Shown here: positions 12,301 through 60,898 of the stretch, piece after piece
Layout: each line of letters opens with the position of its first letter
Numbering within the stretch: position 1 is the first letter of the stretch
From: an uncultured Candidatus Poseidoniales archaeon
GTDB taxonomy: Archaea; Thermoplasmatota; Poseidoniia; Poseidoniales; Thalassarchaeaceae
NCBI GenBank assembly: GCA_902593945.1
Contig: CACJKA010000005.1
Span: 16,643-80,642, forward strand
Direction of reading: 5' to 3'
Length of the DNA stretch: 64,000 bases
The notes under the pieces: model-generated
Database searches by the model: none
Told to the model about the DNA's origin: nothing
The model's input: only the letters and a program-made list of their open reading frames with translations
Translations under genes and position numbers: made by a program

Positions 12301-14890
12301 CGGTGTTCTTGAAACTACTTGGTTACCCTCTGAAGATGCAGCATGGTATGGCTACAGAGTTTATATCTGGGATTCAACAAATATACCTAACTGGGAGCCT
12401 AGTAAACAAGATTTAGATGATTTTGCAGGTTATATGCATGTTCCTTTCTGGTCCCAAACATCAGCGACTATTACTGAAGCTGATCATGATGGTGTCATGT
12501 CAACATTGATGGATGGGAACAAGTATCGTGCAGCAATTGTTACAGAATATGCAGATGGTTCAGTTGGGGAGCCAATGACATGGCCTTTTAATGCAACTCC
12601 AATTGATGAAGTTCCATCACCTCCTGAATGGCTAACTGCAAATCCAATTTCAGGAGGTACCGCCGGAACAATCTATGCAGAATGGTCAGCCTGTACTGAG
12701 ATGGACTCCGCTAAAACTAGGCTTTGGGCGGTTGAACAAGAGATTACAAATGCTCTAGCGTTGACAAATAACTATGACATTTCTTCAATTTCAGGAAATA
12801 ATACAGTTCTACAATTGAACCCCGGCTCTACATATTGGTTTGCTGCTGTTTGTGTAGATGAAAGTGGTCAGTCAGATCCACTAAATGCCACAATAGTTGG
12901 CCCAATCGTAACAGCGGGTGGCCTTGATGATGGCATTCCACCGATGCCGATTGAAGGAACTACTGCTATCGATGTCCCAGACGATGAAGGGGGACAAATA
13001 CAAGTTTCTTGGATTCCCAATGACGAAGACGATTGTACATTCTATACTATATTCGCCTTACCTGCTACTAGTTGGCAACCACCAAACAATGTAGATGGTT
13101 GGCCAGTATCATCATATGTCTCAAATTGTTCATCTAACTCTACAATCATTTCCTCGTTTGGAGATTCTCCATTCTTAGACGATACTACTTATTGGATAGG
13201 TGTGGTTGCTTCTGATGATTGGGGTAATCAAGATTTGAGCGATGTATTGGTTGTTGAAGTAACTCCTCAATCAAATAATGGTGGTGTAGGTATACCGCCA
13301 GCAAGAGTCGAGGGCTTAGTAGCATTCGATCATCCTGAAGATGATGGTACAGCTATTGATATAATTTGGAATAGGTCTTTAGCTACTGATTTCTCATTCT
13401 ATACAATTTGGGTTTCTGATTTCTATCAGGAAGATTTAACAGAATCTTGGAATGATTGTTCTGAATCTCCTCTGTCTTGTGGGCTTATAACATTGAATCA
13501 ACAGCAAATTGGAGGAGCATTCCAACTTCAGATGACAGTAGAGAAGGCACATTATGGAGACACTATTTCACAATCTTCTTCATCGTCAATAATACCCGAA
13601 GTTCCTCTATATGTAACTATCACAACTCATGACATCCATGGTAATGTATTCCTTTCTGATATGCAGAATTATATGGTCCTAGTTATTCCTTCAGATAATA
13701 GTGGAGATGTTTTCCCTCCTCCTAGAATCAACCCTCCGCAGTTAACTGACCGCCCATCAGATGATGGAGATGCTGTGTTTGTAACATTCCAAGAAAGTGA
13801 GGCTTCAGATATCTATGAATATTGGATATTTGCTGAAACAGTTCCTTTCAGTTCTTTAGTAAATCGCCAACCAGCAATGATTATTGATAGAGATGTAGAG
13901 ATGCCAGTTTTACTTCAACAATTTTCAGATGGCAGTCCATTAGCGCCTAATATTATGTTTTGGGTCAGCGTAATTCCCGTTGATTCATCTGGAAATTATT
14001 GGGATGAAGGAATCAAAACATCTTCAATTGCTTTAATCAATGAAAATATTCTTGATCCCGGCCTCCATATTCCAGAGATAGGAGGAATAATTGCTTATTG
14101 GGATAGTACAGGAACTAGGATTCAAATTGAATGGGATGATAAAAATGATCCAGCGATTGAATCATATTACATTTTCTTATCTTCTACGCCCTTTGAAGAT
14201 ACTCGTGATGCAGACACTTCTCAAAACGTAGTTAAACCATATTCAAGTTATACATGGCAAGCAACTCCATCTGAAATGGGTAATCAATACCCTCTCAACA
14301 ACGAGGCTTCCTATTGGATTGCTATAGTAGGATTTGATGGAGAAGTTCATCGTCTTGCTGTCGACCCTCTAGAAATACAACCTTGGTCAGAATCAGCTTT
14401 CGGCACAGATAGTGGTGGCTTGGATGACTCTGGAGTATCTTGGATAAATCAATTAATTGATGGCGATATGAATATGATAATAGCTTTAGTATCTGCAATA
14501 ATGATATTATTAGGTGGAGTAATGATTATGAAACCTAGAGGAAGATCTGCACCGCAACCTTGGGAGATGGGAACTCTAGAAGTAGAAATGGAGGAACAGA
14601 TGTATGACGAGGATTTCGGAATGGACGATGACTTCTCAGAAGATGATTTTATTCCTGATAAAGTAGAAAATGTACAATTTGATGAACAAATAAATATTGA
14701 TTCTTTATCACCTACAAAGCTTGATGATGAAGTTGTAGATGAACTACTTGTAGATGAAGAAGAGATTGATCTAGATGATTTAAGTGACTTAGCAGATGAC
14801 TTTGATCTTGATGATCTTGACGATATGGCAGAAGAATTATCTGAATTAGAAGATGATATTGATACATCTTTTATTGATGATATTTTGTGA
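6311..14890 (+). CDS. giant (2859 aa) surface protein: signal peptide, many propeller-type repeats, FN3-like modules, C-terminal TM anchor and acidic cytoplasmic tail
   Basis: Single uninterrupted 8.6-kb ORF. N-terminal hydrophobic segment MAMILVALMLLLPWASF (alternative ATG 6353). More than 15 repeats resemble the two-component-regulator propeller motif (e.g. GWVWVATINSGILRLD, LYIGFENTGIGRYNL, LWVTTAGNGLYKIDL). About six ~140-aa modules each start D.P.DDGG.I.V.W. A TM helix IIALVSAIMILLGGVMIM (~14467-14530) is followed by a D/E-rich tail. Confidence 0.9.
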   Translation: MRIVYDSVSGPQKRMAMILVALMLLLPWASFESPNLEQDSETMNTIPGAWGAGGSNDTGWIELSAEGANPSNGTFAYGDLFLDFAPGALIDNMTFEVKVNGSDGLWAYEPQITLLDSQTQILDWTDLGGFGIQDSFTENQPDVNSNGILDARLQPNSVSDTSWQLPTGISITDLVMEALRPADPKVSFSSLDIEIFDSAVNPVDGRLYILLGDDLLHLDDQTSTIIVDIESDVYGRSLAIDEFGNRLLIGTANGTILQRSLSDSSIMETYVSSNNQTVDALTVDDYGTIWAVSGCSVYYISEGSLESYYYCPGGAIKTATDIVPYGNDLYISTYQGLHLLGFSTSSGVNGTSVTVDSNVLWNTNNFLSSDRINDLQLFGSQLLIATDNAGIDRRNLVSNSWMATWSTNNWLSSNQVVGFGLTEGWLYILAANTIHTYDTNALFFSSQRQLTVFDLKENGNEIISWPGLGKQRSPDSGLVLVGDGSGVLGRLVGEINDGIETLVSSPSTNQMNQVIFVDDNEEGEIWVSGGTIIDRFDEATQTWLTPIDISDYVSNPFEITAFVQDSDGWVWVATINSGILRLDNTDASYMGTVQGIASNAVSSLSHDSYTEILVVGHYEDGLSFVNTSSMTLSDVITEQDGLDSNFINDVVTRYGVAYIATPDSGVMRINLQDFTILSSWQSLGADNLEAAPLAVDDDIIYFGLTGFGILLIDRHTSEIIDIWDADGSSGLPDNDVLSLHLDYYGGLIVGMEVPNSGGTSNQAMARWDGSDWEYFETDVPGGNNDPWKINDIKSDADGVVAATNRGVCTWTGWTLIQSNIYEWDECISPMNTSARFSETFSIELVPLSSSLSENCCTRILAGHNEGASLINRDVGLDVVERWTAGDDTQRARVVKVQDILYIGFENTGIGRYNLTSQEWLQTWDGDQGFIDDDDVTVLIPGHVEDTIWAGGDFGLTLINVVNETVLIDWDRGSNSGGPTLSNSAPQDIVIIDEILHYSTQRSTAWWQSNDQIWRINLTSNSSESTIDVGQELGWNGKIHSIGQVSEELWIGIRPTQYWNEGDGTIARWNVTNETWEAPLDTIGSVERVNAQFLGECFPINVSSCELWIAYGDNILRRFSAQTMTLLDEWTDIPGPIRGIVEYQDDYLFASMDGILRWEPDNETWLDPWVVNDGLPSDANDEVYTMIVVGDDLWAGSYSSGGWNTNSEIIRKNGTSGNWTTWDLGSAGIPSGYTADIEVCDNIVHIAVGAVNWWGNQGGIARYDLSDHDSDGITDEWITSLLTSNGLEDNDARALACDEANRIMYVGFDEEGVGIARYNYNTDQFLTTLTNSVDGISEDRIFPGGMLHDGNVLLTAHQFDTTGGISRIITSGTSTVNGQILSPGMDGCSIVRAPSSSTPIYAIGRSGQTSGINRVDRLDSTGLIESGFDELTGLTSGKILNIISNETNVWATSSLGWNSYYASSVLQGELVNDTVRWQYGYSFDGDIINDISLDGDNLWVTTAGNGLYKIDLIQRTLTPTSSALHSQMDGMFIEEDGTMYVGLMGESGTSAGYQAFNTNTENWGQGSLIAGLPSNIVRDFLEVDNHVLIATSGGIGMYNLTKDGWDSPITSYNGLPSPVIEHLMLLDSPIQGNGTILAGGLAGLTVLEAGTYSIQNTIDYSDGLIGNRVSGMLFADSVTREVTVGNSSIIQHHNASIFISHNGQGATRPGVAAWDIDTDSQNGTYLIDMIPSNNVLNLAADSWGVHVATDIAPVVHWNGTMGQMEAGTNPSNLLSWPPVKMVSNGNYLVLIGSGGINLLDVGNSHSVVASTSASGFNNAFIESDSLFVAAEDGLHVWKGSLIEQPREYQRRAEPMFSVFGGRQWEITSTTHPGMSTALVNSSDPLFIPNDSNSLPGVLPMYNGAMTITSPISSSNVWARSVSLNYSGSWDLAGRNPAIEAGFQSAISNVGPGSNSVQLHVQMQSPMNGTISVRMTYDWERIEVPTILTSLNNRANDGGGVLETTWLPSEDAAWYGYRVYIWDSTNIPNWEPSKQDLDDFAGYMHVPFWSQTSATITEADHDGVMSTLMDGNKYRAAIVTEYADGSVGEPMTWPFNATPIDEVPSPPEWLTANPISGGTAGTIYAEWSACTEMDSAKTRLWAVEQEITNALALTNNYDISSISGNNTVLQLNPGSTYWFAAVCVDESGQSDPLNATIVGPIVTAGGLDDGIPPMPIEGTTAIDVPDDEGGQIQVSWIPNDEDDCTFYTIFALPATSWQPPNNVDGWPVSSYVSNCSSNSTIISSFGDSPFLDDTTYWIGVVASDDWGNQDLSDVLVVEVTPQSNNGGVGIPPARVEGLVAFDHPEDDGTAIDIIWNRSLATDFSFYTIWVSDFYQEDLTESWNDCSESPLSCGLITLNQQQIGGAFQLQMTVEKAHYGDTISQSSSSSIIPEVPLYVTITTHDIHGNVFLSDMQNYMVLVIPSDNSGDVFPPPRINPPQLTDRPSDDGDAVFVTFQESEASDIYEYWIFAETVPFSSLVNRQPAMIIDRDVEMPVLLQQFSDGSPLAPNIMFWVSVIPVDSSGNYWDEGIKTSSIALINENILDPGLHIPEIGGIIAYWDSTGTRIQIEWDDKNDPAIESYYIFLSSTPFEDTRDADTSQNVVKPYSSYTWQATPSEMGNQYPLNNEASYWIAIVGFDGEVHRLAVDPLEIQPWSESAFGTDSGGLDDSGVSWINQLIDGDMNMIIALVSAIMILLGGVMIMKPRGRSAPQPWEMGTLEVEMEEQMYDEDFGMDDDFSEDDFIPDKVENVQFDEQINIDSLSPTKLDDEVVDELLVDEEEIDLDDLSDLADDFDLDDLDDMAEELSELEDDIDTSFIDDIL

Positions 14891-18743: not shown

Positions 18744-20294
18744 ATGAAGAAAACGAAGAATATGAGTATGTTGATTGCACTACTCCTATTGCTAATGGTT
18801 GGTTCAGTCGGTGTTCAAGCTGACGGTTCCGATCCACTCGACCCATCTGATGGTGGTGCCGATTGGGATGGAGATGGACTAACCAATGCTGAGGAGCAGG
18901 CTGCAGGAACAGACATGAATAATGCAGATACTGACAACGATGGATTACCAGATGGGTGGGAAGTAGCTTACGGGCTAAATCCTAATTCAGCTAGTGATGC
19001 GAACGCAGATCCGGATGGCGACGGCCTATCCAACTCTCAGGAGTATGCCGCGGGTACAAACCCGAATAGTGCAGATACCGACGGAGATGGTGTAGCTGAC
19101 GGCTCCGATCCGTTCCCAAATGATCCTAATGATGGTTCATCATCTGACTCTGATGGCGACGGAATACCTGATGCGTATGACCCTGACTTCCCTGGAAATG
19201 ACCAGGGTGATGGCGACGGCGGAACAGATGGCGGCGGTGAAGGAGAAGATGGTGAAGGCGAAGGTCAAGGTCAAGGACAAGGTCAAGGACAAGGTCAAGG
19301 TCAAGGACAAGGACAAGGTCAAGGACAAGGTCAAGGACAAGGTCAAGGCCAAGGACAAGGTCAAGGACAAGGTCAAGGACAAGATGGTCAACAAGGCCAA
19401 GGCCAAGATCAAGGATCGCAATCAGGACAAGATGGTCAACAAGGCCAAGACAGTCAAGATGGATCGCAAGGTCAGCAGCAAGATAATGGACAAGGCCAGC
19501 AATCTGGTGGAGAACAATCTGGACAACAAGGTGACCAAACTGGCGATAGTCAGAATGGAAACAACCAGAATGGTCAAAATCAACAGCAACAAGGTCAGAC
19601 CCAAGACTCCAATCAAGGACAACAGGGACAACAATCCGATCAGCAGCAAAACCAACAGCTCGAGAACCAAGACCAGAACGGTGAAAACGACAACGATGGA
19701 GATGGCATCCCTGATGACCTAGACTTCGATGACGACAACGATGGTATTCCTGATAATCAGGATGCTAACCCAGAGGATCACGATAACGATGGTATCGACG
19801 ATGCAGATGATGATGACGATGACGGTGACGGAATAGACGACCAAGAGGAAGTCAATGATGGAAACCCAAATACAGACATCTATGATCATGACAACGACGG
19901 TGTCAGAGATAACGTAGACTTTGATATTGACAATGATGGCATTGATAATTGGAACGATATTGGACCGAACGGTGAGGATTACTCACGCGATCATGACAAT
20001 GACGGTTTGAATGACGGTGTTGACACTGACGATGATAACGATGATATCCTTGACGTTGACGAAAACGATGGCGTTGTAGGCGTTTGGAGATACGATCATG
20101 ACAACGATGGAATCCAAGATTATTGGGATCTAGACGATGATAATGATGGTCTTTCCGACTGGTTTGAGCAGAATGATGGCTGGAGTAATACCGGCCAATT
20201 CGATCACGACAATGATGGCGTGCCCGATCATCTGGATGACGACGACGATGGAGACGGAATCTTAGATTCCGACGAAAACGGCGGAGTCCTCTGA
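18744..20294 (+). CDS. secreted, highly acidic calcium-binding protein with thrombospondin type-3-like repeats flanking a GQ-repeat/Q-rich low-complexity core
   Basis: Signal peptide MKKTKNMSMLIALLLLLMVGSVGVQA. Numerous DxDxDGxxDxxD units (DTDNDGLPDGWE, DPDGDGLSNSQE, DHDNDGVPDHLDDDDDGDGILD). Central (GQ)20 followed by a Q/G/D/N/S-rich stretch. Confidence 0.85.
   Translation: MKKTKNMSMLIALLLLLMVGSVGVQADGSDPLDPSDGGADWDGDGLTNAEEQAAGTDMNNADTDNDGLPDGWEVAYGLNPNSASDANADPDGDGLSNSQEYAAGTNPNSADTDGDGVADGSDPFPNDPNDGSSSDSDGDGIPDAYDPDFPGNDQGDGDGGTDGGGEGEDGEGEGQGQGQGQGQGQGQGQGQGQGQGQGQGQGQGQGQGQGQGQDGQQGQGQDQGSQSGQDGQQGQDSQDGSQGQQQDNGQGQQSGGEQSGQQGDQTGDSQNGNNQNGQNQQQQGQTQDSNQGQQGQQSDQQQNQQLENQDQNGENDNDGDGIPDDLDFDDDNDGIPDNQDANPEDHDNDGIDDADDDDDDGDGIDDQEEVNDGNPNTDIYDHDNDGVRDNVDFDIDNDGIDNWNDIGPNGEDYSRDHDNDGLNDGVDTDDDNDDILDVDENDGVVGVWRYDHDNDGIQDYWDLDDDNDGLSDWFEQNDGWSNTGQFDHDNDGVPDHLDDDDDGDGILDSDENGGVL
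19263..19382 (+). repeat. coding hexanucleotide microsatellite (GGN CAA) x20 encoding (Gly-Gln)20
   Basis: Read directly from the sequence: ggtcaaggtcaaggacaaggtcaaggacaa... from 19263 to 19382. Only GGT/GGA/GGC alternation interrupts perfect periodicity. Confidence 0.95.
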
Positions 20295-32937: not shown

Positions 32938-33300
32938 ATGCACATGACTAGACTAAGACGACGTATAGCAAAAGAAACAGGAGAGCCGGTCAGAACTGAC
33001 AAGGGAGGGGCATCAAGAAAATTAGAAGAATTATTACAAAGAGCTAGGATGAATGGTGCCAAACAAGGGCCTCTAGTTCCTGTTGAAGCCCTCATTAATG
33101 TTGAAAGAGATGAATGGATTTGGCAAGTAGTTGACAAAAGAGTTCTTGATGCACTAAGTCATAGATTGATTTTTCAATCAGATAATGGCTCACGCCGTGA
33201 GATATTAATGACTATGGGATTAGAAACTGCAATGGATGCAGCCTCATGTATTGTTGAACTAGATGGCGGTTGTGTTTTAATTGAGACTTTAGACCCTTGA
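32938..33300 (+). CDS. hypothetical protein (120 aa, basic N-terminus)
   Basis: Its composition is more protein-like than the overlapping antisense ORF 32844..33137, which is Cys/Ser-rich. No family recognised. Confidence 0.45.
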   Translation: MHMTRLRRRIAKETGEPVRTDKGGASRKLEELLQRARMNGAKQGPLVPVEALINVERDEWIWQVVDKRVLDALSHRLIFQSDNGSRREILMTMGLETAMDAASCIVELDGGCVLIETLDP

Positions 33301-33578: not shown

Positions 33579-34448
33579 CTATTCAGATTCAGTTAGATCT
33601 ACGAAATCAATTTCATTATTGAGTAAATCATTTGCATTTATGATTTCAGTATTTTCTTGTTGATTTTTTAGCGACTTGGAAACTATATAATCCAATTCTG
33701 ACGACCTCACCTCGGAATCGGGTTTTGCTTCAATTAGCGCAGTAATAGCTCTCCCGAGGGCTCTCTCTACTGCTGGGGCATTTCGATCTAAAAGAGCGGC
33801 TCTAGCATCTTCTAATGCGTTTTTTGCATTCTCCAGCATCATTTTTATTTCTGGATCTGTACCTATCAATAATCTAATCTCATTTTCAACGACATTAATT
33901 TCTTCTTCCATCTCATTTCGGGCATATTTGGACAACTCTCTCCAACATTCACCATGTTCTGCCAAAGATGCATTAGTCATTTTTTCAAACTTCTTAACTC
34001 TACTTGCCTCCCATGGATTTCTTCCTAATGACGCCATTATGTCATGGACACATCTCGCTCTGAGAGATAGTGGACCGATTAGTTCTATTTCATTATAGAA
34101 GCATTTTGCCCAAAGTCCGAAACCCCAATATGACGCACTTTTGATATTAATTTTTAATTCTCCGGCAGATGAACTGAGAACCCATTGTTGCTCGTCATAC
34201 TCCGGTTTTCTAGAGAATTTTGGAGGGTCATGAGGGCCTAATGATCGTAGTGAAACATTTGCAATATCACCAAGAAAAACATTACTTGTTTTACCCTGCC
34301 AACCAATATTTCTGAGATAATTCTCTTCATCAATCCTCATCTCTGGATCTCCAGACATAACTTGAGCGAATAATAAACTACGATTTGGGTCACAACCAAG
34401 AGGTTTTTTTTGACTATCTCCTTCTTCCACGAGTACCCGTAGTGTCAT
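33579..34448 (-). CDS. hypothetical protein (289 aa; helical, acidic C-terminal third)
   Basis: Clean 289-aa ORF with no recognisable motifs. Its stop abuts the secG stop. Confidence 0.6.
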   Translation of the reverse strand: MTLRVLVEEGDSQKKPLGCDPNRSLLFAQVMSGDPEMRIDEENYLRNIGWQGKTSNVFLGDIANVSLRSLGPHDPPKFSRKPEYDEQQWVLSSSAGELKINIKSASYWGFGLWAKCFYNEIELIGPLSLRARCVHDIMASLGRNPWEASRVKKFEKMTNASLAEHGECWRELSKYARNEMEEEINVVENEIRLLIGTDPEIKMMLENAKNALEDARAALLDRNAPAVERALGRAITALIEAKPDSEVRSSELDYIVSKSLKNQQENTEIINANDLLNNEIDFVDLTESE

Positions 34449-34717: not shown

Positions 34718-35866
34718 TTATTTTATTGAAGGTAAATTTTCAGCAATATCTTCAGTAATTTGTTCACTATCTGATTCTAGATCAGCGATACTAGGCGATG
34801 ATTGTGCTCTGTGATAAATTTCTCTTAATGTTTGATCACCAATTTCTAGATATACTCTCGTTGTTGAAATATTTGCATGTCCAAGAAGTCTTTGTATTGT
34901 TACTAAATCAGCTCCTCTTTCTAGAAGCCCTGTTGCAAAAGAATGTCTCAGAACATGTGGGCTTAATCTTGTTCTAGGTATGTCAGAAGCGTCTGCAATA
35001 CGATCCAACAATTTTTGAACCGAACGCGGATTTAATCTTCGACTTCGACTAGAGAAAAATAACGACCTCATATCTTCTTCTCTAATGCAATTCTTCAGTC
35101 TGGCATTTCTTATTGGTCTCCAAGCATCTAATGCATCTAATGTTGCATTAGTGAAAAGAACGGTCCTATCTTTCTCCCCTTTGCCTCCAATAACCAATGC
35201 CGACAAATCTTCTAAATCTACATCATCTAAATCTAAATTACAGATTTCTGAACATCTTAGTCCAGTATCAAGCATCATTGTAATTATTGGAAAAGCAATA
35301 GGGTCTTCCGATCTAATTGCTGCTAGTCTGACTTTTTGTAAGTCATTTTTCCCTAATGTCCTAGGCAGTGATCTAGATCTGGCAGGCCTTTGAATCCATT
35401 CAGGAATAGCATATCCCATCCATTTCAATAAATGTGTAATTGCTGCAATTCTTGCATTAATTGTTGCAGGTCTCAAATCTCCTATTGTGTTTAACCACGA
35501 ATCAACTCTACCATTGTTGGGATTACTTCTGTTAAATAATTCTGAAACTTGAATCTCTTTTATTTCATCCCAAGATAATATTTCTTCATTTGGTAGTGTT
35601 GTTGTTGTGAATGTCTTCGCTGCAACAACATAGGATCTTATTGTATGTTCACTCTTTTTCTCGGTTTTTAATTGCTGAGTCCAGCATTCATACCAAGGTA
35701 AGAATGCTAGCCTCTGAAGTCTTTGAGGTAGTTTCTTGGTATGAATTAATAATTCTGCACCTTTCAAATTTGACTCATGATTTGAGTCATCAATAACCTC
35801 TGAGATTATTTTTTCTTCATTCTGTTTAGTCAATTCCCTCGCCTCATCGTCGCGAACGACGCGCAT
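34718..35866 (-). CDS. tyrosine recombinase (XerA/XerC/phage-integrase family) with extended N-terminus
   Basis: Catalytic signature TGLRCSE (Arg), HVLRHSFATGLLERGADLVTIQRLLGHANISTTRVYLEI (H-x-x-R, His, Tyr). 382 aa, about 80-90 aa longer than typical XerA. Confidence 0.9.
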   Translation of the reverse strand: MRVVRDDEARELTKQNEEKIISEVIDDSNHESNLKGAELLIHTKKLPQRLQRLAFLPWYECWTQQLKTEKKSEHTIRSYVVAAKTFTTTTLPNEEILSWDEIKEIQVSELFNRSNPNNGRVDSWLNTIGDLRPATINARIAAITHLLKWMGYAIPEWIQRPARSRSLPRTLGKNDLQKVRLAAIRSEDPIAFPIITMMLDTGLRCSEICNLDLDDVDLEDLSALVIGGKGEKDRTVLFTNATLDALDAWRPIRNARLKNCIREEDMRSLFFSSRSRRLNPRSVQKLLDRIADASDIPRTRLSPHVLRHSFATGLLERGADLVTIQRLLGHANISTTRVYLEIGDQTLREIYHRAQSSPSIADLESDSEQITEDIAENLPSIK

Positions 35867-35971: not shown

Positions 35972-36919
35972 TCATGAATCTGCTTGATATTTCTCATTCA
36001 CATTATTAGATTGATAATCCTGATTTATTGAACCTTCATTCTTTTGCATAAGATAATTCAATCTACTCGAAACCGCACCTGCAACATTAACCTCTGAGGC
36101 CTTTTCGATACCTTCTAATCCAGGGCTAGAATTAACTTCTAAAACAAGTGCTCCTCTATCTGATTCTAATAAATCAACACCTGCAATCTCCAGACCCAAT
36201 ATTCTAGCTGCTTTTATTGCGATTTTTTCAAAATCAGGATCTATGTCTACCTTTTCTACACTTCCTCCAAGGTGGAAATTTGATCGGAATTCATCCCCAT
36301 TCGCTCTTCTTCTCATACACGCGACAACCTTTCCGCCTACTACTAATGCTCGAATGTCTTTTCCATGTGACTCTTCTATGTATTCTTGTACCAAAGGTCT
36401 CATTTCTCTTTCTAACATTTGGTAAACTAATTGACGAGCATGTTGTTCTGTTTTTGCTAGAAAGACCCCTGCCCCATGGGTCCCTTCAGTCGATTTTACT
36501 ACACAAGGAGTCCCACCAACTCTACTAATTGCTCTATTCGTGTCTTCCCAAGATACTACTTGTGCAGTAATAGGGACTGGTATGTTTCCTGAAGACATCA
36601 TTTGACAGGCTATCAGTTTGTCCCTACTCCTAGTTATTCCGTCACTAGAGTTCATTACAATTACACCCATCCTTTCAAACTGTCTAACTATAGGCACACC
36701 TCTTCTTGTTATTGAATATCCAATTCTTGGAATAACCGCCTCGCATTCTACTGGCCATCCTCTATAGAATATTTTTCCTCCCTGTTCATCGACAATCATG
36801 GTTAGAGCTAGAGGGTCCAAGATTCTTACATCCCAACCAGCATTTTCTGCTTCCTCAGAAAGACGTTTTGTAGAGTATAATTTTGGCCCACGAGAGAGTA
36901 TAACTAATCGAGGCCTCAT
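35972..36919 (-). CDS. rimK: RimK-family ATP-grasp alpha-L-glutamate ligase
   Basis: MRPRLVILSRGPKLYSTKRL..., VVKSTEGTHGAGVFLA, GDEFRSNFHLGGS and GVDLLESDRGALVLEVNSSPGLEGIE. I prefer ATG 36919, which aligns with the usual RimK N-terminus. The track's TTG 36991 adds 24 codons. Confidence 0.85.
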   Translation of the reverse strand: MRPRLVILSRGPKLYSTKRLSEEAENAGWDVRILDPLALTMIVDEQGGKIFYRGWPVECEAVIPRIGYSITRRGVPIVRQFERMGVIVMNSSDGITRSRDKLIACQMMSSGNIPVPITAQVVSWEDTNRAISRVGGTPCVVKSTEGTHGAGVFLAKTEQHARQLVYQMLEREMRPLVQEYIEESHGKDIRALVVGGKVVACMRRRANGDEFRSNFHLGGSVEKVDIDPDFEKIAIKAARILGLEIAGVDLLESDRGALVLEVNSSPGLEGIEKASEVNVAGAVSSRLNYLMQKNEGSINQDYQSNNVNEKYQADS

Positions 36920-37052
36920 AATTCGCCGCGAACGCCCGCCCTTCTTGACTTCTTTGGCTGCGGAAATGGTATTTTCGTACTCTAGTGGCAATTCTACAAC
37001 ACAGAAGAAGGAAGGTATTGAAAGACTTGGCTCAACGACAAGTCCTGTTATT

Positions 37053-39329
37053 ATGGCCGACGAGGAGTCTTACACATTCGACTCATTATCAAAAATGATG
37101 GTTTTTGACTTGAGAGAAATATGTAAAAAAGAGGATTTATCATCCTCAGGAAACAAAGCAGAATTAATTGTAAGGATTCTTGGACATTTTTCATCAGATA
37201 ATGGAAATGATGACTTACTTCTCGAAGAAGAATCAGCCGAGAGTCAGAACTCATCAGTTAAGATTGAAGGAAAAAATGAAGAAATTCGTACTTCTAAAGA
37301 TATAGATGATGCCATAGATAGACTAATTTCTCGTGTTGAATCTAAGGATAATTTGGTTCTTGATGATAATTCTGAAGAAAAGGAAGTAATAGAAGAACCA
37401 GAAATAGCTGAAGAAATAATGGAGGCAGAGATTTTCGAGGCAGAAATTATCGAAGAACCAATAACTCCCGAAAAAGAAGAACCTTCCTTAATTTTGGACG
37501 AAGACGACCCTTGGTCATTAGAAAATGAAGAAGTAAAGGATATTTTTGAACCTACTACTGAAGACAAGGAAGATCAACCCTCAATGACAATTGTTCTGCC
37601 TTCAATAGATATTTTTAAGAAATATTGGCAACAAATTTCTGCAGTTTTTATGGTAGTTATACTAGTAGGTGCAGGAGTAGTTTACTTTCTTTCAGCGGAT
37701 TCCTCGTTCCAAGCTAGACCGTTAAATTATGGAGATTCTATGACATTTACTTTGAGCGATGGAGAGATTATTTTAGATGGTGATGACATGGTTGCATTAT
37801 TGAGAGACAATTTACCAGACACGGCAATTACAGACGCCTGCGATAAGCTTACAGTAGGGCTGACTGGGACAGGTTCAATCTCAATCGTTGAAGGAGATTT
37901 GTCTCAAATCGATCATCCGATTGATAGACAGTCATCTGATGAATTATTGGGAGTAATCAATGCCAAAGATGCCTATGGTCGTTCGCATTTGACAGTACAA
38001 CAAGAGATAACGCATGATCTCGAAGTCGATTTAGAAGGCAAAACATGGAAAGACACTAATGTATGTGGAAATTTAGGTTGGTCATTATCTGGTAATGATT
38101 TATTGATGACGACTAATATTTACGATGAATTAACAGAAACAAGTCTATTACGTTCGGAATCAATTATTTCGTTTACTGATGTCGAAGGCTCAACAACAAA
38201 TGCGAATGTTGTAACATTTGGTGCAGATGGTTTTGGTAATTTAGATGGAATAGCACCAATCTTAACATTCCCGTTAGCCCCCGTTGAGTTACACGATTTC
38301 TTTGGAGATATTAAATTGAAATCAGGTATGACTTCTGATTCAATATCTGATTGGAACAAGGATTGGGAATGGAGTGTTGGTTCTGAACAAAACACTGCAG
38401 AACATGGCTTGGTTTATCCAGTAAAAATTTCTCACTCCGAAGTTGAAAGATGTCTTGGGAGAATGAATATCGATATTCTTGTTAAGAATGGTGTTCCTTG
38501 GGCGGTTGAGCAAGAAGTTGATATCTTAATAGATAAAGATCAGAGTACTTCTGATTGTAGTTTTATAGAAAGTGCAGCTACTGATGCAGTTCTCCCAGAG
38601 GGGACTCTAACTGTAAGGATGAAGATGAGCAGAATAAGTTCAGATTCAGGTTCAGAATCGATTTCCTGGGGGTCAACATATGCTGGTAGGCCCGGACCTG
38701 GAGAAGACAAACTCAGTACTAATGCAAAGAAAGATTGGTCGACGGCAATGTGGGACGAATCTGAAATCAGGTCATTTACATTGGAAGATGCAATTAGTTG
38801 TTTACGTGCCAATCATTCTAACCGAGATGTAACTGTAGCAATTGATAGTGATGGATACATTTGGCAGTCTGCTTATTCGCTAGGTGAAATGGAAGAATGG
38901 AATCTATCATGGGTTCGTTCAGACGAAACATCTGGATGGGCAATAGTTAGCCAATCAAATAATGCTTGTTCATTTGAGGACGAAGGTCGTGATGATGGAG
39001 AAGTAATTTGGAATCAAGATGCAATTCCTTCAACTCATACATTGAAGAATCTAGAAGTTCGCGTTCTTGATTCTAATCGGTATCAAGACTTATCCGTGTC
39101 TTTGGGTGATAATCAGTGGTCAGAAGGTAGTAGTTTTGGATACAGATTGTCAGTATCCGAAGATAGTGATTTTCTTTCATTTTTACCTGGTGATCTTACA
39201 GAAGGACAAGTAACAGTTGCTGGAAGTAGGGAATGGACAGAATCTAATCGTAAACATAACATAAATTTTGCAATGGATGCTCAAACCGGAAGGATGCTTG
39301 CTTGGGCCGAGATTATTGGCCAACCTTAA
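37053..39329 (+). CDS. single-pass membrane protein: N-terminal SAP/HeH-like motif, acidic linker, TM helix, ~550-aa extracytoplasmic domain
   Basis: I start at ATG 37053 (MADEESYTFDSLSKMMVFDLREICKKEDLSSSGNKAELIVRILGHF = SAP-like pattern). The track's extension to 36798 overlaps rimK. E/D-rich linker, then TM helix ISAVFMVVILVGAGVVYFL, then a large domain with no recognised motifs. Confidence 0.75.
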   Translation: MADEESYTFDSLSKMMVFDLREICKKEDLSSSGNKAELIVRILGHFSSDNGNDDLLLEEESAESQNSSVKIEGKNEEIRTSKDIDDAIDRLISRVESKDNLVLDDNSEEKEVIEEPEIAEEIMEAEIFEAEIIEEPITPEKEEPSLILDEDDPWSLENEEVKDIFEPTTEDKEDQPSMTIVLPSIDIFKKYWQQISAVFMVVILVGAGVVYFLSADSSFQARPLNYGDSMTFTLSDGEIILDGDDMVALLRDNLPDTAITDACDKLTVGLTGTGSISIVEGDLSQIDHPIDRQSSDELLGVINAKDAYGRSHLTVQQEITHDLEVDLEGKTWKDTNVCGNLGWSLSGNDLLMTTNIYDELTETSLLRSESIISFTDVEGSTTNANVVTFGADGFGNLDGIAPILTFPLAPVELHDFFGDIKLKSGMTSDSISDWNKDWEWSVGSEQNTAEHGLVYPVKISHSEVERCLGRMNIDILVKNGVPWAVEQEVDILIDKDQSTSDCSFIESAATDAVLPEGTLTVRMKMSRISSDSGSESISWGSTYAGRPGPGEDKLSTNAKKDWSTAMWDESEIRSFTLEDAISCLRANHSNRDVTVAIDSDGYIWQSAYSLGEMEEWNLSWVRSDETSGWAIVSQSNNACSFEDEGRDDGEVIWNQDAIPSTHTLKNLEVRVLDSNRYQDLSVSLGDNQWSEGSSFGYRLSVSEDSDFLSFLPGDLTEGQVTVAGSREWTESNRKHNINFAMDAQTGRMLAWAEIIGQP

Positions 39330-39386: not shown

Positions 39387-39403
39387 AAGCGCCGAAGGCG
39401 CTT
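39387..39403 (+). other. perfect 7-bp hairpin AAGCGCC-GAA-GGCGCTT ending 3 nt before the parA ATG
   Basis: Read directly from the sequence. It lies in the 76-nt spacer between the SAP-protein stop (39329) and the parA start (39406). Confidence 0.6.
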
Positions 39404-39405
39404 GT

Positions 39406-40350
39406 ATGTCTGCTGATGATGACAGTAATCTTCCTGAGGTTGAGAAGATTCCATTGGTAATTGATGCCGAATTTACTGAGGAAGAAGAAATTCAAGGTAC
39501 AACAAGTAGTTTGAATGAAATCTCTTCTCAAAAAACAAGTAGACCACTGGATTTACCCTTTCCAACTCCAACTCCTGATGGTCGTGCAAGAGTAATCACT
39601 GTCATTAACCAGAAAGGAGGAGTTGGGAAAACAACCACTGTGATTAATATTGCATCTCAATTGGCATTGAGAGGTCACCGTATTCTAGTCGTGGATGCGG
39701 ATTCTCAAGGTAACTGTGCAACAGGATTAGGAGTAGACAAAAGTAAGGTTCAGCACACAACTAGAGACCTTATTCTTTCACCAGAGACTGCTATATCTGC
39801 TCGACATGCGACCGCTGTTGACGGACTACACATGATTGTTGGAGATCGAAGTTTGGTAGGATTAGAGCAGGAAATGTTGAGGCAGTTGGGTAGGGAAAGA
39901 CGATTATCAGAAGCTTTAGAGCCATTACTTCCACATTATGATATTGTCATAATCGATACCCCTCCTTCACTGGGTTTGGTAACAATAAATGCGCTTGTTG
40001 CAAGCAATGGAGTATTAATTCCTGTTCAAACCGAATATTTCGCTCTTGAGGGTCTTGCAATGTTGGCAGGAACAATCAGAGAGGTCAGAAGTCTGCTCAA
40101 TCCAATCTTAGGTGTTGATGGAGTTTTACTGACCATGCATGCTAGTACTCTTCTAAATCAACAGGTGGCATCAGAAATTTTCGAACACCTTCCTGAGTTT
40201 GTAATTCGTCCAGCTATAAGGCGTAATATCAAACTAGCAGAAGCCCCAAGTCATGGTGTGCCAATACATTTGCACGATCCAAGTAGCAACGGCGGTAAAG
40301 ACTACCAAGACGTTTCTAGTGTATTGGCAAAAAGATGGGGATTAGAATAA
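39406..40350 (+). CDS. parA: ParA/Soj-family chromosome-partitioning-type ATPase with acidic N-terminal extension
   Basis: Deviant Walker A VINQKGGVGKTTT, then VVDADSQGN, IVIIDTPPSLG and IPVQTEYFALEGLAML. I start at ATG 39406. The track's extension to 39268 overlaps the upstream gene end. Confidence 0.9.
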   Translation: MSADDDSNLPEVEKIPLVIDAEFTEEEEIQGTTSSLNEISSQKTSRPLDLPFPTPTPDGRARVITVINQKGGVGKTTTVINIASQLALRGHRILVVDADSQGNCATGLGVDKSKVQHTTRDLILSPETAISARHATAVDGLHMIVGDRSLVGLEQEMLRQLGRERRLSEALEPLLPHYDIVIIDTPPSLGLVTINALVASNGVLIPVQTEYFALEGLAMLAGTIREVRSLLNPILGVDGVLLTMHASTLLNQQVASEIFEHLPEFVIRPAIRRNIKLAEAPSHGVPIHLHDPSSNGGKDYQDVSSVLAKRWGLE

Positions 40351-41312
40351 TGTCATCTAAAGGCCTTGGAAGAGGCTTAGAATCGGTAGCAGAATTGGCC
40401 AAAGAAGGACCTGATCTTTCATCATATGTATCTGTACCAAAATTACCAGTAGATTCTCCAAGAGTGGCTGTTCTTTGGATGATATTTGGCAGTATTTCAT
40501 TTGGGACTATGAATGCATTAGTGAAATGGACATCTGTAAATGCAGACGTATGGATGATAATTTTCGTACGTTCACTGGTAATTGCTATAGCAGTAGCTGT
40601 TTTTGCTAGTTTTCAAGGCATAAGCCTCAAAGTGAAAGATCGAAGAAAGATGTTTCTACGTTGCCTCACAGGATTAATTGCAATGTTGCTTTATTTCACA
40701 GCATTGTCATTAATTCCAATTGGTCAGGCGGTTACATTACAGTATACTGCTCCATTATTTGTAGCACTACTTTCTGGCCGGTTAATTAGCGAGAAAGTTT
40801 CTTCTTCAGTTCTAATTCTCCTATTGACAGCTTTTGTAGGGATAGTTCTGATAGTCTCTCCAGACTTGGAAAGTATTGATTCCAATGCACTACTTGCTCT
40901 TGGGTCGGGATTATTTGCAGGATTAGCTTATATCTTTGTTCGTGATTTAAGAAAAACAGAATCACCATCTTCAGTAGTATTTTGGTTCGCTGCTTTTTCA
41001 GTCCTAGGGTCAATGGTTCAAGCAGTCCCTGATTTATCCAATTTATCATTCGAAATGGTTGCAGCTTTAATCGGCATTGGAATTGGTGCAGGGGGAGGTC
41101 AAGTAGGAATTACTATGGCTTACCATAAGGCAAATGCTGCTTGGGTCAGTGCTTTTTCCTATCTTACAGTAATAATAGCAACAATTTATGGCGTTATTTT
41201 GTTTGATGAGATATTAACTTTGAAGATTATTATTGGTGGTTTAATGATTATAGGTTCGGGAATAGCATTGGTATTTTTTACTCCCTCAAGTTCAGATAAT
41301 GAGAGTTCTTAA
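40350..41312 (+). CDS. EamA/DMT-family 10-TM permease carrying a ParB-like N-terminal peptide
   Basis: About 10 hydrophobic helices in two halves with EamA-like sequence (LQYTAPLFVALLSGRLISEKV...). The N-terminus is MSSKGLGRGLESVAELAKEG. ATG 40350 overlaps the parA stop (TAATG). An alternative ATG at 40335 adds 5 codons. Confidence 0.8.
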   Translation: MSSKGLGRGLESVAELAKEGPDLSSYVSVPKLPVDSPRVAVLWMIFGSISFGTMNALVKWTSVNADVWMIIFVRSLVIAIAVAVFASFQGISLKVKDRRKMFLRCLTGLIAMLLYFTALSLIPIGQAVTLQYTAPLFVALLSGRLISEKVSSSVLILLLTAFVGIVLIVSPDLESIDSNALLALGSGLFAGLAYIFVRDLRKTESPSSVVFWFAAFSVLGSMVQAVPDLSNLSFEMVAALIGIGIGAGGGQVGITMAYHKANAAWVSAFSYLTVIIATIYGVILFDEILTLKIIIGGLMIIGSGIALVFFTPSSSDNESS

Positions 41313-57852: not shown

Positions 57853-58953
57853 ATGAGTGAAAGCAAGTCGCCAAAAGGGAATGATACCGAAGGTATCGAT
57901 GAACTTTCTAGCCTTCGCGCTCAGCATGTTCTCTCTGCATCTTCTACTATGGATTCAGTAGCCAGAGCTCGTGACAGATTAGATGAAGAATCAAAATTAA
58001 GATCTGGTATCCGCAGAGAAAGAAGAATGCGTATTGCAGAGATGACAGAGCGAGTATCAGGAATGCACGGTGCAATAAGAAAAGCCAATGAAATTTTATT
58101 TGAAGAACAGCTTCAAAATATTGAAGCTGATTTAAGGGCAGGTCTTGAAGAAGAAATGGAGAGACTTGAAACCGAAGCTCTGGAAAGAGAAGAAAGAATT
58201 CTTCGTGAAGAAATGCTTCACCGTTTACGCCGTGAAGAAAATCGCCTTAGAGAACAACTTGACTTGGAAAGAGATAGGCGTATAGAGGCACATACGTCGA
58301 AATTACGAAACCGATTAAAGTCTGAAATGGAAGTAGAACTTACTCGTAGACAGGCATTTTTGAGTGAAAGATTAGAGTTAGAAGCGAATCAAGATGTTGA
58401 GCGAATGGAAAGAAGAGTTGAGATGGATCTTCGTGAAGTTATGGAATCACAAGTCCATCGAAAGGTAGAGGCTTACCGTTTAGATCAAGAAATTCAAATG
58501 AGAGAAAGGCTTGCTGAAGCAAGAAAGGCTAGAGAATCAGAATTAGATAAGCAACTGAAAGTTGAGCGCAAATCGTTAGAGAAGGAGATGTTAACAGATG
58601 TCGACGTTAGAATCAAGTCTCTTGAAGAAGAAGCAGAACAAAATGCTTTATCAGACCTTGATAGAAGATTCAGAGCCGAAAGAAAAACAATGGAAGCAGC
58701 GTTATCACTACGTCGCCAAGAATTAGCATTAGAAAGCGAAGTTGAAATGGAGCAGAGAGTTGCTAATTTCGCTAAAGAGAGAGAAACGGAATTACTCAAT
58801 ACTCTTGAAGAACAATTTTCTAAGAGGACTGACATTTCAAAGAAAGAAGTTAGTGAGATAATGAAATCTCTAGAATCTCAACTGAAGGTTAAATGGGAAA
58901 AAATAATCTTAGACGCTAAACAAACAACTCTCGAAAGAGTTAGTGAAGATTAG
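57853..58953 (+). CDS. highly charged (E/R/K/L-rich) long alpha-helical / coiled-coil protein
   Basis: 366 aa dominated by segments such as EEEMERLETEALEREERILREEMLHRLRREENRLREQLDLERDRR. Its stop TAG overlaps the stop of convergent parA2. Confidence 0.7.
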   Translation: MSESKSPKGNDTEGIDELSSLRAQHVLSASSTMDSVARARDRLDEESKLRSGIRRERRMRIAEMTERVSGMHGAIRKANEILFEEQLQNIEADLRAGLEEEMERLETEALEREERILREEMLHRLRREENRLREQLDLERDRRIEAHTSKLRNRLKSEMEVELTRRQAFLSERLELEANQDVERMERRVEMDLREVMESQVHRKVEAYRLDQEIQMRERLAEARKARESELDKQLKVERKSLEKEMLTDVDVRIKSLEEEAEQNALSDLDRRFRAERKTMEAALSLRRQELALESEVEMEQRVANFAKERETELLNTLEEQFSKRTDISKKEVSEIMKSLESQLKVKWEKIILDAKQTTLERVSED

Positions 58954-59858
58954 TTTCCTTGAATTCTTTGAATTCTTAAGTCTGCTTCTTTTGCAAAATC
59001 CCATAGATTCTGACTAGCTGGATTTGATTTATTTGGCTTTTTGGCGATTACAATTGGTGCTCCTTCTAATGGTGATTCCGCTATAGATATGGATCTAGCA
59101 ATCTGAGTTGTGAATACTCGTTCGCCGAAATGCTTCCTTGCTTGTTCGGTAACTGTTTCACATAATTTACTTCGAGTTTGTACCATGGTGAGTACAATTC
59201 CTAACAATCTTAAGTCTGGATTAACTGCTTTTTGAACCTCTTTTATCATATTAATCAATTGTCCCATTCCTTCCAGAGCATAGAACTCTGCTTGTATAGG
59301 AATTAGTACCCACTGGGCCGCAGTTAACGCATTTGTAGTTAATAATCCGAGAGAGGCTGGCGTATCAATTATGATCACATCGAAGTGTTCCTCGGCTTGA
59401 ACTAGAACTGACTTCAATCTAGCCTCCCTACCAAATCTTGTAGCCAAGTCTATTTCAACTCCTGAAAGATCTAGGTCAGCAGGTAGGATCCATAAATTGT
59501 TGATTGCAATTTCTTTTGGCGGCCCTCTCTTTTTCTCTGGATTATGTTTTCTCCAAGATTTCTTCATTGATTGAGTTAGATTACCTGGACCGAGAAGACA
59601 TTGGTTTAGACTAACTTGTGTTCCATCAATACCTCCTTTGAATAACTCATTCATTGTTGGTCCAAGTGTTCTCTTGTCTATTCCAAATGTTGTAGCAACG
59701 TTTCCTTTAGGATCTAAATCAATGAGTAAAACACGTCTTGCTTTGATTCCCATTTCTACATTACCAGTGGCAAGAGAGGATGCTAAATTTACTGCAGTAG
59801 TAGTCTTCGAACAACCACCTTTGTGATTGACAACTGCGATTACTACTGGCTTCGCCAT
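58950..59858 (-). CDS. parA: ParA/Soj-family ATPase paralogue with basic insertion
   Basis: MAKPVVIAVVNHKGGCSKTTT (KGGxxKT deviant Walker A), LIDLDPKGN, VIIIDTPASLG and IPIQAEFYALEGMGQL. A ~25-aa basic insert is present (SMKKSWRKHNPEKKRGPPKE). I prefer ATG 59858, preceded by GGAG. The track's TTG 59897 adds 13 codons. Confidence 0.85.
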   Translation of the reverse strand: MAKPVVIAVVNHKGGCSKTTTAVNLASSLATGNVEMGIKARRVLLIDLDPKGNVATTFGIDKRTLGPTMNELFKGGIDGTQVSLNQCLLGPGNLTQSMKKSWRKHNPEKKRGPPKEIAINNLWILPADLDLSGVEIDLATRFGREARLKSVLVQAEEHFDVIIIDTPASLGLLTTNALTAAQWVLIPIQAEFYALEGMGQLINMIKEVQKAVNPDLRLLGIVLTMVQTRSKLCETVTEQARKHFGERVFTTQIARSISIAESPLEGAPIVIAKKPNKSNPASQNLWDFAKEADLRIQRIQGN

Positions 59859-59914: not shown

Positions 59915-60898
59915 TCACTGAATTACCGGTACTGGTACTTCTGAAAGGATCTTTCGCATTAGGTGTTGACCTGTTACTCCACGAATCTTTGACTCTGGTT
60001 TCAATACGATTCTGTGGCTTACAACTTGAAGTGCAACATTCTTGATATCATCAGGAATTACGTAATCTCTACCATCGATTGCTGCGCTTGCACGGCTGGT
60101 CTTGAATAGTGACTGACTTGCACGAGGTGAAGCTCCAGTAATTACTCTGTGATCTTCACGTGTACGGTGTACAAGTTCAACAATGTATGACATGATTGCA
60201 GGGTCTACGTGGACTGTTTCCAGTGCTTTTTGCATTGCTACAACTTTCTTTGGTGAAGTAATCTGCTCAACATCGTGAGCATCCTTTCCTCTTAGTTTCC
60301 TTCTTTGTAGAATTGCCTTTTCTTCTTGCCTGTTAGGGTAACCCATTGACATCTTCATCAAGAAACGGTCCATCTGTGCTTCAGGTAGAGGATATGTTCC
60401 TTCTTGCTCGATTGGGTTCTGTGTAGCCATTGTAATGAAAGGAGCAGGTAACTTGTGAGTAATACCTTCAATTGTTACTTGCTTTTCTTCCATCGCTTCC
60501 AGCAAAGCAGCTTGTGTCTTTGGTGGAGCACGGTTAATCTCGTCAGCTAGTAGAACGTTTGTGAATAGTGGACCAGGACGTAACTTGAACTCTCCAGCTT
60601 GCTGATCGTACATGTATGTCCCCATGATATCTGCAGGTAGAAGATCAGGAGTAAATTGAACACGCTTAAACTTACAACCAAGTGCTGTAGCGAATGTATT
60701 TGCCATCAAAGTTTTAGCTAATCCAGGGAAATCCTCAATCAACATATTTCCATTTGAAAGTATACCTACAGAGATTCTTCTGAGGTTTTCTTGCTTCCCA
60801 ATAATTACCTTGGATACTTCATTCATCAATGCATTTGAAATCTGCGAAACCGTTTGAATTAACTCACGGGACTTCGGGTCACTGGCTGCCATAGTCAT
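59915..60898 (-). CDS. moxR: MoxR-family AAA+ ATPase
   Basis: Walker A-like FPGLAKTLMA, Walker B/sensor LLADEINRAPPKTQAALLEAMEE and TQNPIEQEGTYPLPEAQMDRF. Confidence 0.9.
   Translation of the reverse strand: MTMAASDPKSRELIQTVSQISNALMNEVSKVIIGKQENLRRISVGILSNGNMLIEDFPGLAKTLMANTFATALGCKFKRVQFTPDLLPADIMGTYMYDQQAGEFKLRPGPLFTNVLLADEINRAPPKTQAALLEAMEEKQVTIEGITHKLPAPFITMATQNPIEQEGTYPLPEAQMDRFLMKMSMGYPNRQEEKAILQRRKLRGKDAHDVEQITSPKKVVAMQKALETVHVDPAIMSYIVELVHRTREDHRVITGASPRASQSLFKTSRASAAIDGRDYVIPDDIKNVALQVVSHRIVLKPESKIRGVTGQHLMRKILSEVPVPVIQ

Follow-up and report, generated by a model that had tools for sequence, protein, structure and literature searches.

Archaeal chromosome segregation is largely unknown, and the archaea of Marine Group II are abundant, uncultured members of the ocean plankton. 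In bacterial ParA-ParB systems, the gene for ParB directly follows a parA of the Soj type, overlapping it or set off by a few nucleotides, and the protein begins with a disordered tail whose first ~15 residues include the motif (K/R)GLG(R/K)GL..(L/I/V). Here, we describe a locus with the same arrangement in a stretch of 64,000 nucleotides (the window; all positions are counted from its first letter) from an uncultured Candidatus Poseidoniales archaeon of the Thalassarchaeaceae (contig CACJKA010000005.1). The gene that directly follows parA in this locus, eamA, encodes a permease of the EamA/drug-metabolite transporter (DMT) type. On balance, we favor the view that the first ~14 residues of this permease form a working chromosomal ParB-type ParA-interaction motif, a remnant of parB fused to the transporter.

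The contact between ParA and the bacterial peptide has been described at the residue level. Helicobacter pylori ParB begins MAKNKVLGRG, and its L7 and R9 contact ParA in the crystal structure (PMC11229316); the critical residues of Myxococcus xanthus ParB are L11, R13, L15, L18, and I19 (PMC12462528). Partners of ParA/MinD proteins generally use charged N-terminal peptides, and in archaea bacterial-type ParAs have more than once acquired new partners (SegB, Haloferax HpaB). The peptides of McdB, PomX, MinE, TlpT/ParP, SegB, and HpaB are not of the ParB type, and these proteins are either soluble or attached to cargo, whereas the peptide found here is the canonical ParB one. No polytopic membrane transporter is among the non-ParB partners of ParA/MinD described in the literature we examined, and our literature searches returned no report of a polytopic transporter that carries the canonical ParB peptide, nor of a ParA system of any kind in Poseidoniales or Marine Group II.

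Two described systems invite direct comparison. Noc, a paralogue of ParB, tethers DNA to the membrane; it keeps the DNA-binding body of ParB, and its N-terminal amphipathic helix binds lipid. The locus resembles Noc in being a ParB-derived system that would link nucleoid and membrane, as proposed here from sequence, but it has lost the body of ParB, and an integral membrane protein would anchor the peptide that binds ParA. As in SegAB of Sulfolobales, an archaeal ParA-family ATPase has a non-ParB partner gene directly downstream. Unlike in SegAB, the ParA matches bacterial Soj (E = 1e-56 to 1e-43) much better than archaeal SegA (7DUT, E = 5.8e-13), and the downstream gene encodes a permease and not a small DNA-binding SegB. 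With bacterial ParA, this ParA shares the deviant Walker A motif and the basic residue for DNA binding; four of the six positions of the hydrophobic pocket are retained in the alignment, but the equivalent of M. xanthus (Mx) Y81 is an arginine. Compared with bacterial ParB, there is no CTPase, helix-turn-helix (HTH), or dimerization domain and no parS; the motif sits on a DMT transporter with ten transmembrane helices, and the host is an archaeon. Judged by its sequence, the system resembles a ParA/partner pair, and the EamA protein itself is not a ParB.

The N-terminal peptide of the permease

The parA stop codon TAA (40348-40350) shares its last A with the eamA ATG (40350-40352), which confirms the TAATG overlap reported in an initial annotation of the window. 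The 320-residue product begins MSSKGLGRGLESV or, in a longer excerpt, MSSKGLGRGLESVAELAKEGPDLSSYVSVPKLPVDSPRV; a further in-frame ATG upstream, at 40335, would extend it by MGIRI. The initial annotation had also likened this N terminus to the ParA-contacting peptide of ParB, a likeness that was upheld by alignment with seven ParB N termini and with the motifs in the literature. We fetched the ParBs encoded after seven of the bacterial parAs closest to the parA of the window, and their N termini read MATRNGKGLGRGLDAVFSAFEGPNK, MAALKRSALGRGLDALI, MAKGLGKGINALF, MAGQKKGGLGRGLAALIPTGP, MTIKSRGLGRNLSVLLG, ..KPRGLGRGLSALM, and MANNAKGLGKGLAALLG. The motif cores KGLGRGLDAVFSAFEGP, SALGRGLDALI, MAKGLGKGINALF, GGLGRGLAALI, and SRGLGRNLSVLL match the EamA tail, and the archaeal tail variants MSKRVLGRNLDSL are closely like the H. 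pylori and Legionella forms. Residues L11, R13, L15, and L18 of M. xanthus ParB align in the same register with L6, R8, L10, and V/I/M/L13 of the EamA proteins, and the motif likewise has counterparts to L7 and R9 of H. pylori ParB.

The pattern G[LIVM]G[KR][GNS][LIVMF] occurs a single time in the window when all six frames are read, and across related loci (~1.2 Mb) the same six-residue pattern is found almost only at the start of eamA. A phmmer search of the 39-residue tail against the PDB sequences returned designed helical proteins only, a query of this length being too short to be informative. The sequence comparisons support the peptide as a real ParB-type ParA-interaction motif: an N-terminal L-G-(R/K)-G-L-x-x-(L/I) in a tail with a low predicted local distance difference test score (pLDDT).

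The rest of the protein is a transporter. EamA (PF00892) was the sole Pfam family detected, in two stretches from residue 40 onward (E = 3.7e-25), and scans with Pfam and NCBIfam at E ≤ 0.1 returned EamA-type/DMT families only, with no ParBc (PF02195) or HTH domain. AlphaFold2, run on an 18-sequence alignment, predicted ten transmembrane helices and gave residues 1-27 a pLDDT below 50, so the tail is probably disordered. Foldseek matched the model to the DMT transporters SLC35B1, CST, and YddG, with TM-scores of 0.57-0.72 normalized to the query. The protein thus has the two EamA repeats, the ten helices, and the fold of a DMT transporter and lacks the ParB/Srx (CTP-binding) domain, the HTH parS-binding domain, and the dimerization domain of a ParB. 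Because residues 39-309 make up the ten transmembrane helices, there is no room for an HTH/parS-binding or C-terminal dimerization domain. Pfam and AlphaFold2 therefore agree with the initial description of an EamA protein of about ten helices with no ParB/Srx or HTH domain after ~40 residues. Lysines and arginines cluster in the tail and in the loops between helices 2 and 3, 4 and 5, and 6 and 7, and from this distribution the tail is predicted to lie on the cytoplasmic side.

The claim that the 64 kb hold no canonical parB also stood. ParBc is absent from ten unannotated open reading frames (ORFs) of the window (Pfam). A hidden Markov model (HMM) of seven ParB sequences, searched against the six-frame ORFs of the window and of 93 related loci (1.32 Mb, which does not cover whole genomes), gave a best E-value of 0.74, and precomputed Pfam assignments list no ParB among the genes within 10 kb in several related loci. 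We considered the ORF at 33579-34448 (-) as a hidden ParB, with weak HMM matches (E = 0.7-9) through a helix, ERALGRAITALIEA, that mimics LGRGLxALI. The glycine and the third hydrophobic position vary elsewhere (LSRASSAIV, LARATQALV), and for this reason we set the likeness aside as probably coincidental. This ORF, downstream of xer, encodes a conserved protein with no Pfam match and a very conserved helix, NAPAVERALGRAITALIEA.

Conservation of the peptide and of the ParA pocket

One genome per GTDB species was scanned, which yielded 80 loci; the full comparison comprised 85 loci, and 58 non-redundant peptide-bearing loci formed the conservation set. The peptide is present in 58 of the 85 lineages, over which the identity of the transporter falls to 52%. 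Its motif residues L, G, R, and L are kept in 58, 58, 57, and 58 of these 58 loci, and the number of different codons that encode them is six, four, five, and six, respectively; all six leucine, four glycine, and five arginine codons are used at these (nearly) invariant positions. In 57 of 58 loci, the start codon (ATG in 51, TTG in four, GTG in two) has a fixed place (-4), four codons ahead of the position where the motif has its first Gly/Val. Since synonymous codons vary while the start stays fixed, we conclude that the peptide is translated and under strong purifying selection at the protein level. The gap between the parA stop and the eamA start ranges from -7 to +3 nt in all 58 loci, compared with -29 to +20 nt for bacterial parA-parB pairs. 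Constraint at the nucleotide level, through the overlap with parA or translational coupling, was rejected as an explanation, because the overlap does not exceed 7 nt and all the synonymous codons occur.

The EamA protein has 894 homologues, the best matches being from Candidatus Poseidoniales/Thalassarchaeaceae (Marine Group IIb), and full-length homologues at 67-98% identity retain the motif. In a search of 1.84 billion representative proteins, relatives outside the clade have no tail and no motif and start right at the first transmembrane helix; the nearest EamA from outside (P0125, L093) has no parA upstream.

The order Xer-RimK-SAP/transmembrane protein-ParA-EamA is found in every related Thalassarchaeaceae locus whose contig extends there, and on every contig long enough to show it the SAP gene immediately precedes parA. 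Both the fusion and the SAP-parA-eamA order recur in Poseidoniales relatives; a full-length parB between parA and eamA was sought in the relatives and found in none, and no other gene lies between the two in any related locus. The wider 20-kb neighborhood is likewise syntenic, the housekeeping neighbors PolB, EF-1alpha, S10, and SRP19 being so in all lineages examined over that span, and the GC content across the region is 0.32-0.41. An integrated mobile element, which the nearby integrase might have indicated, was rejected because the integrase is syntenic together with 20 kb of housekeeping genes and the GC content is flat.

The remaining 27 of the 85 loci have no peptide and fall into four clades: L072 alone, a group of 14 species, a group of nine species nested among peptide-bearers, and a large clade with proteins of 294-297 residues that start MNDNDSPR. 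In a neighbor-joining, midpoint-rooted tree of ParA plus the EamA core, these clades are scattered, and the most divergent lineage (L008, 52% EamA identity) carries the peptide. For both reasons the common ancestor probably had the peptide, and truncation of the N terminus removed it on at least four occasions. In L066 (PBUX01000034.1), the motif arginine is replaced by methionine (VKRGLGMGLRE) and the start is a shifted GTG, so the peptide may be in the middle of being lost there. A second tail motif sits ~6 residues past the ParB-type one, and a remnant of it, SSYI, is left in one peptide-less clade. L060 (NZKZ01000064.1) is titled as a bacterium, Acidiferrobacter sp., and carries the full archaeal Xer-RimK-SAP-ParA-EamA locus; it is probably mis-binned.

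The ParA itself matches AAA_31 (E = 2.8e-53) and CbiA in Pfam and is 41-47% identical to bacterial chromosomal ParA/Soj proteins. The closest solved structures are those of M. xanthus (8RAY, E = 1.5e-56), Thermus thermophilus Soj (1WCV/2BEK, ~1e-51), and H. pylori Soj (6IUB, E = 8e-45). The deviant Walker A reads NQKGGVGKTT, and its signature lysine (K71) and the motif 2 aspartate (D100) are invariant in 85 of 85 loci. The DNA-binding basic residue, R238 in M. xanthus, corresponds to K277 here and is arginine in three c4 loci examined. An acidic N-terminal extension of 60 residues (39403-39580), with the conserved motifs LPEV..APLIIDVEFxE and P(L/M)(D/E)LP...TP.GRARV, is absent from the matched bacterial Soj structures and may form an extra interaction surface. 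Several of the PLSDB matches (H6, H7, H11, H13, H15-H18, H21, H24, and H25) are "plasmids" of 1.8 to 11.9 Mb that look like chromosomes, one such record being a 2.17-Mb entry for Neisseria gonorrhoeae; some of the smaller PLSDB records (L094, L096, L098) hold the origin-proximal genes rsmG-(noc)-soj-spo0J.

We mapped the M. xanthus ParB-binding site onto this ParA through the 8RAY alignment. The pocket residues V116, L150, L152, L155, L187, and L192 correspond to Q156, L190, L192, I195, E227, and L232, of which four (L190, L192, I195, and L232) are retained. The site that receives the motif arginine in M. xanthus (Y81, E82, D110, E117) corresponds to R121, D122, S150, and E157. The two sites thus agree in part, and the change from Y81 to R121 is a genuine departure from the bacterial ParAs.

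Across the 58 peptide-bearing species, 141 positions of the ParA core are invariant, and 14 of these vary in the peptide-less clades. Position 192 (Mx L152) changes from leucine to isoleucine in three independent loss clades and is the sole position in ParA to do so. Other pocket changes are I195 to valine in two clades and L232 to phenylalanine in one; positions 153 and 158, equivalent to G113 and L118, which shift in nuclear magnetic resonance (NMR) spectra, change as well. In post hoc tests with few independent clades, changed positions were enriched in the pocket (3/6 versus 11/135; Fisher p = 0.013) and in the wider NMR-defined site (5/12 versus 9/129; Fisher p = 0.0025). A functional contact between peptide and pocket would predict changes in this direction.

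Neighboring genes

The features of the locus are collected in Table 1. The gene upstream of parA had been read as encoding a SAP-motif membrane protein, and domain and helix analysis bear this out. Its SAP domain (~37086-37190) is cytoplasmic and is followed by an acidic linker, a single transmembrane helix (~37635-37691), and a 545-residue external C-terminal domain. SAP is a HeH-type DNA-binding domain, and the layout recalls the HeH/LEM chromatin tethers of the eukaryotic inner nuclear membrane. The xer gene belongs to a divergent neighboring operon (RimK-Xer-unknown) and is syntenic and 57-90% identical in related loci.

Table 1. Coordinates of the parA-eamA locus and its neighbors in the window.
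Feature	Position	Strand	Basis
Xer-type tyrosine recombinase	34718..35866	-	Pfam Phage_integrase E = 8.6e-35 plus SAM-like N-domain
RimK-type ATP-grasp ligase, between xer and the SAP gene	35972..36991	-	Precomputed Pfam of orthologues, synteny
SAP-domain single-pass membrane protein	37053..39329	+	Pfam SAP E = 1.4e-8, transmembrane and K/R analysis
parA, Soj-type chromosomal ParA ATPase, 315 aa	39403..40350	+	Pfam, NCBIfam, structure matches
Walker A KGGVGKT of parA	39613-39633	+	
eamA, DMT/EamA transporter with N-terminal peptide	40350..41312	+	ORF list, Pfam, AlphaFold2, Foldseek, homologues
EamA N-terminal tail, predicted cytoplasmic, residues 1-38, ahead of the first transmembrane helix	40350..40463	+	pLDDT, positive-inside loop analysis, homologue comparison
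Putative ParB-type ParA-binding motif K4-G-L-G-R-G-L-E-S-V13 (by sequence)	40359..40388	+	Conservation, ParB match
Second tail motif (E/D)-G-P-(D/N)-L-S-S-(F/Y)	40404..40427	+	G20, P21, L23, S24, S25 (nearly) invariant in alignments

Farther out, the ORF at 32938-33300 (+) encodes a conserved 120-residue protein with a strongly basic N terminus (MHMTRLRRRIAKE...) and no Pfam match; it is syntenic in the lineages examined, and its charge and size are like those of small centromere-binding or ParA-partner proteins. A second ParA/Soj-like ATPase lies at 58950-59858 (-) (AAA_31, E = 2.5e-45). It is ~30% identical to L092, a Thalassarchaeaceae orthologue of the first ParA, a value that refers to this orthologue and not to the window's own copy. 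Its gene is directly downstream of 59915-60898, a MoxR-type AAA ATPase as judged by eye, and converges on 57853-58953, which encodes a Glu/Arg-rich protein of 366 residues that looks coiled coil-like by eye; no partner is obvious. Two further proteins are unrelated to the parA-eamA finding: a predicted surface protein of 2859 residues at 6311-14890 (+) and a 516-residue protein at 18744-20294 (+) that contains extended GQ repeats as well as repeats rich in Asp that resemble calcium-binding ones.

Proposed mechanism, alternatives, and significance

The architecture of the protein and the parA-parB-like junction point to an origin by in-frame deletion. A Thalassarchaeaceae ancestor would have possessed a bacterial-type parA-parB pair, and a deletion of the parB body would have joined the opening ~15-20 codons of parB, in frame, with a DMT transporter gene downstream. 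The initial annotation had offered a membrane-embedded ParA activator and a parB remnant as alternatives; the two are not mutually exclusive. An origin from parB is likely, whereas a merely local deletion or an artifact does not hold: the fusion is likely an ancient, selected state of the whole archaeal family.

By analogy with the bacterial system, we infer peptide binding, stimulation of the ATPase, and a cellular role. ParA-ATP dimers would sit on the nucleoid with two peptide pockets at the dimer interface, away from the DNA. In the bacterial model, the peptide sites are opposite the DNA-binding face of the ParA dimer (PMC12462528), and DNA-bound ParA could therefore be reached by tails extending ~25 residues from the membrane. 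The cytoplasmic tail would insert L6, L10, and V13 into the ParA pocket and place R8 on the adjacent surface. The outcome would be a short-lived link between nucleoid, ParA, and membrane, and/or ATP hydrolysis and release of ParA. If ParA is contacted by the tail, the permease would replace ParB as its partner, and control would move from the parS centromere to the membrane.

Long-term selection on the peptide and its co-variation with the pocket suggest that it still engages ParA. The proposal of a ParA activator in the membrane is partly supported by the motif, its selection, the cytoplasmic tail, and the coupling to parA, but strict dependence of ParA on it is contradicted by at least four lineages that lost the peptide and kept both ParA and the coupling. 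In each of these lineages ParA is as conserved as elsewhere and the parA-eamA junction is still tight, and because these clades retain ParA, the peptide is dispensable for its core role. Several other observations weigh against our reading. The conserved bacterial tyrosine that receives the motif arginine (Mx Y81) is Arg121 here, and a Y81L substitution in M. xanthus ParA abolishes ParB-stimulated ATPase activity; Mx V116, L187, and D110 are likewise replaced by Q156, E227, and S150. The archaeal tails do not keep the fifth hydrophobic residue of the ParB motif (Mx I19). Finally, a single bacterial peptide is a weak activator of the ATPase, two juxtaposed peptides being needed.

These points bear on what else the tail might do. 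The main rival to our reading accepts that the peptide binds ParA and takes the transporter as the cargo, so that ParA would space, partition, or gate the permease and have no role in DNA segregation (compare McdA-McdB and carboxysomes). Partners of ParA/MinD are indeed often cargo components with a charged, disordered N terminus, the permease shows the very strong conservation that one would expect of a functioning transporter, and the peptide has been lost without loss of ParA; we nonetheless think this unlikely, given that the other genes of the cluster include those for a membrane protein with a DNA-binding SAP domain and for a Xer recombinase, both suggestive of chromosome biology, that the coupling of parA and eamA outlasts the peptide, and that the positioning of one polytopic transporter by ParA has no known precedent. 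It is also conceivable, if quite improbable, that the tail regulates the transporter or binds another partner, its likeness to ParB being due to ancestry or convergence. The motif matches ParB in exact register, is N-terminal, and follows parA immediately, and the ParA pocket residues vary only in loci where the peptide was lost; such a role would, on the other hand, account for the second, equally conserved motif EGPDLSSF, which has no ParB counterpart, and would fit the ParA differences at Mx Y81, V116, and L187 and the lack of anything relevant in the tail-only phmmer search. That the peptide is a non-functional leftover of a recent local parB deletion, or an assembly or gene-calling artifact, we consider extremely improbable: an in-frame deletion between parB and eamA would indeed leave this architecture, but the idea is refuted by the presence of the fusion in 58 independent lineages, by the persistence of the motif through synonymous codon change, and by the lack of a parB between parA and eamA in any locus.

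Beyond a working ParA-interaction motif on the permease, the SAP domain on a membrane anchor and Xer in the divergent operon hint at chromosome biology. It is possible, although we regard it as doubtful, that the SAP membrane protein, ParA, and the peptide-bearing permease form a membrane-based system of chromosome anchoring and segregation that is independent of ParB and parS. The SAP protein would then tie DNA to the membrane and ParA would coat the nucleoid, while the membrane-borne ParB peptide would make and break ParA-mediated links between nucleoid and membrane; sister nucleoids would be spread or separated along the growing envelope, beside a gene for Xer dimer resolution.

Few cases are documented in which a short linear motif outlived its parent protein by moving to an unrelated one, and the ParB-type peptide of the permease would be one of them; its repeated natural losses, accompanied by corresponding changes in the pocket of ParA, serve as an evolutionary control that is already at hand. 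A synthetic tail peptide (MSSKGLGRGLESVAELAKEG) with recombinant ParA offers a cheap way to ask whether a ParA is driven from the membrane without ParB or parS. Were the SAP protein, ParA, and permease to act together in segregation, they would represent a new mode of coupling between nucleoid and cell envelope. Our findings suggest that, in marine Group II archaea, a ParA is controlled from the membrane.

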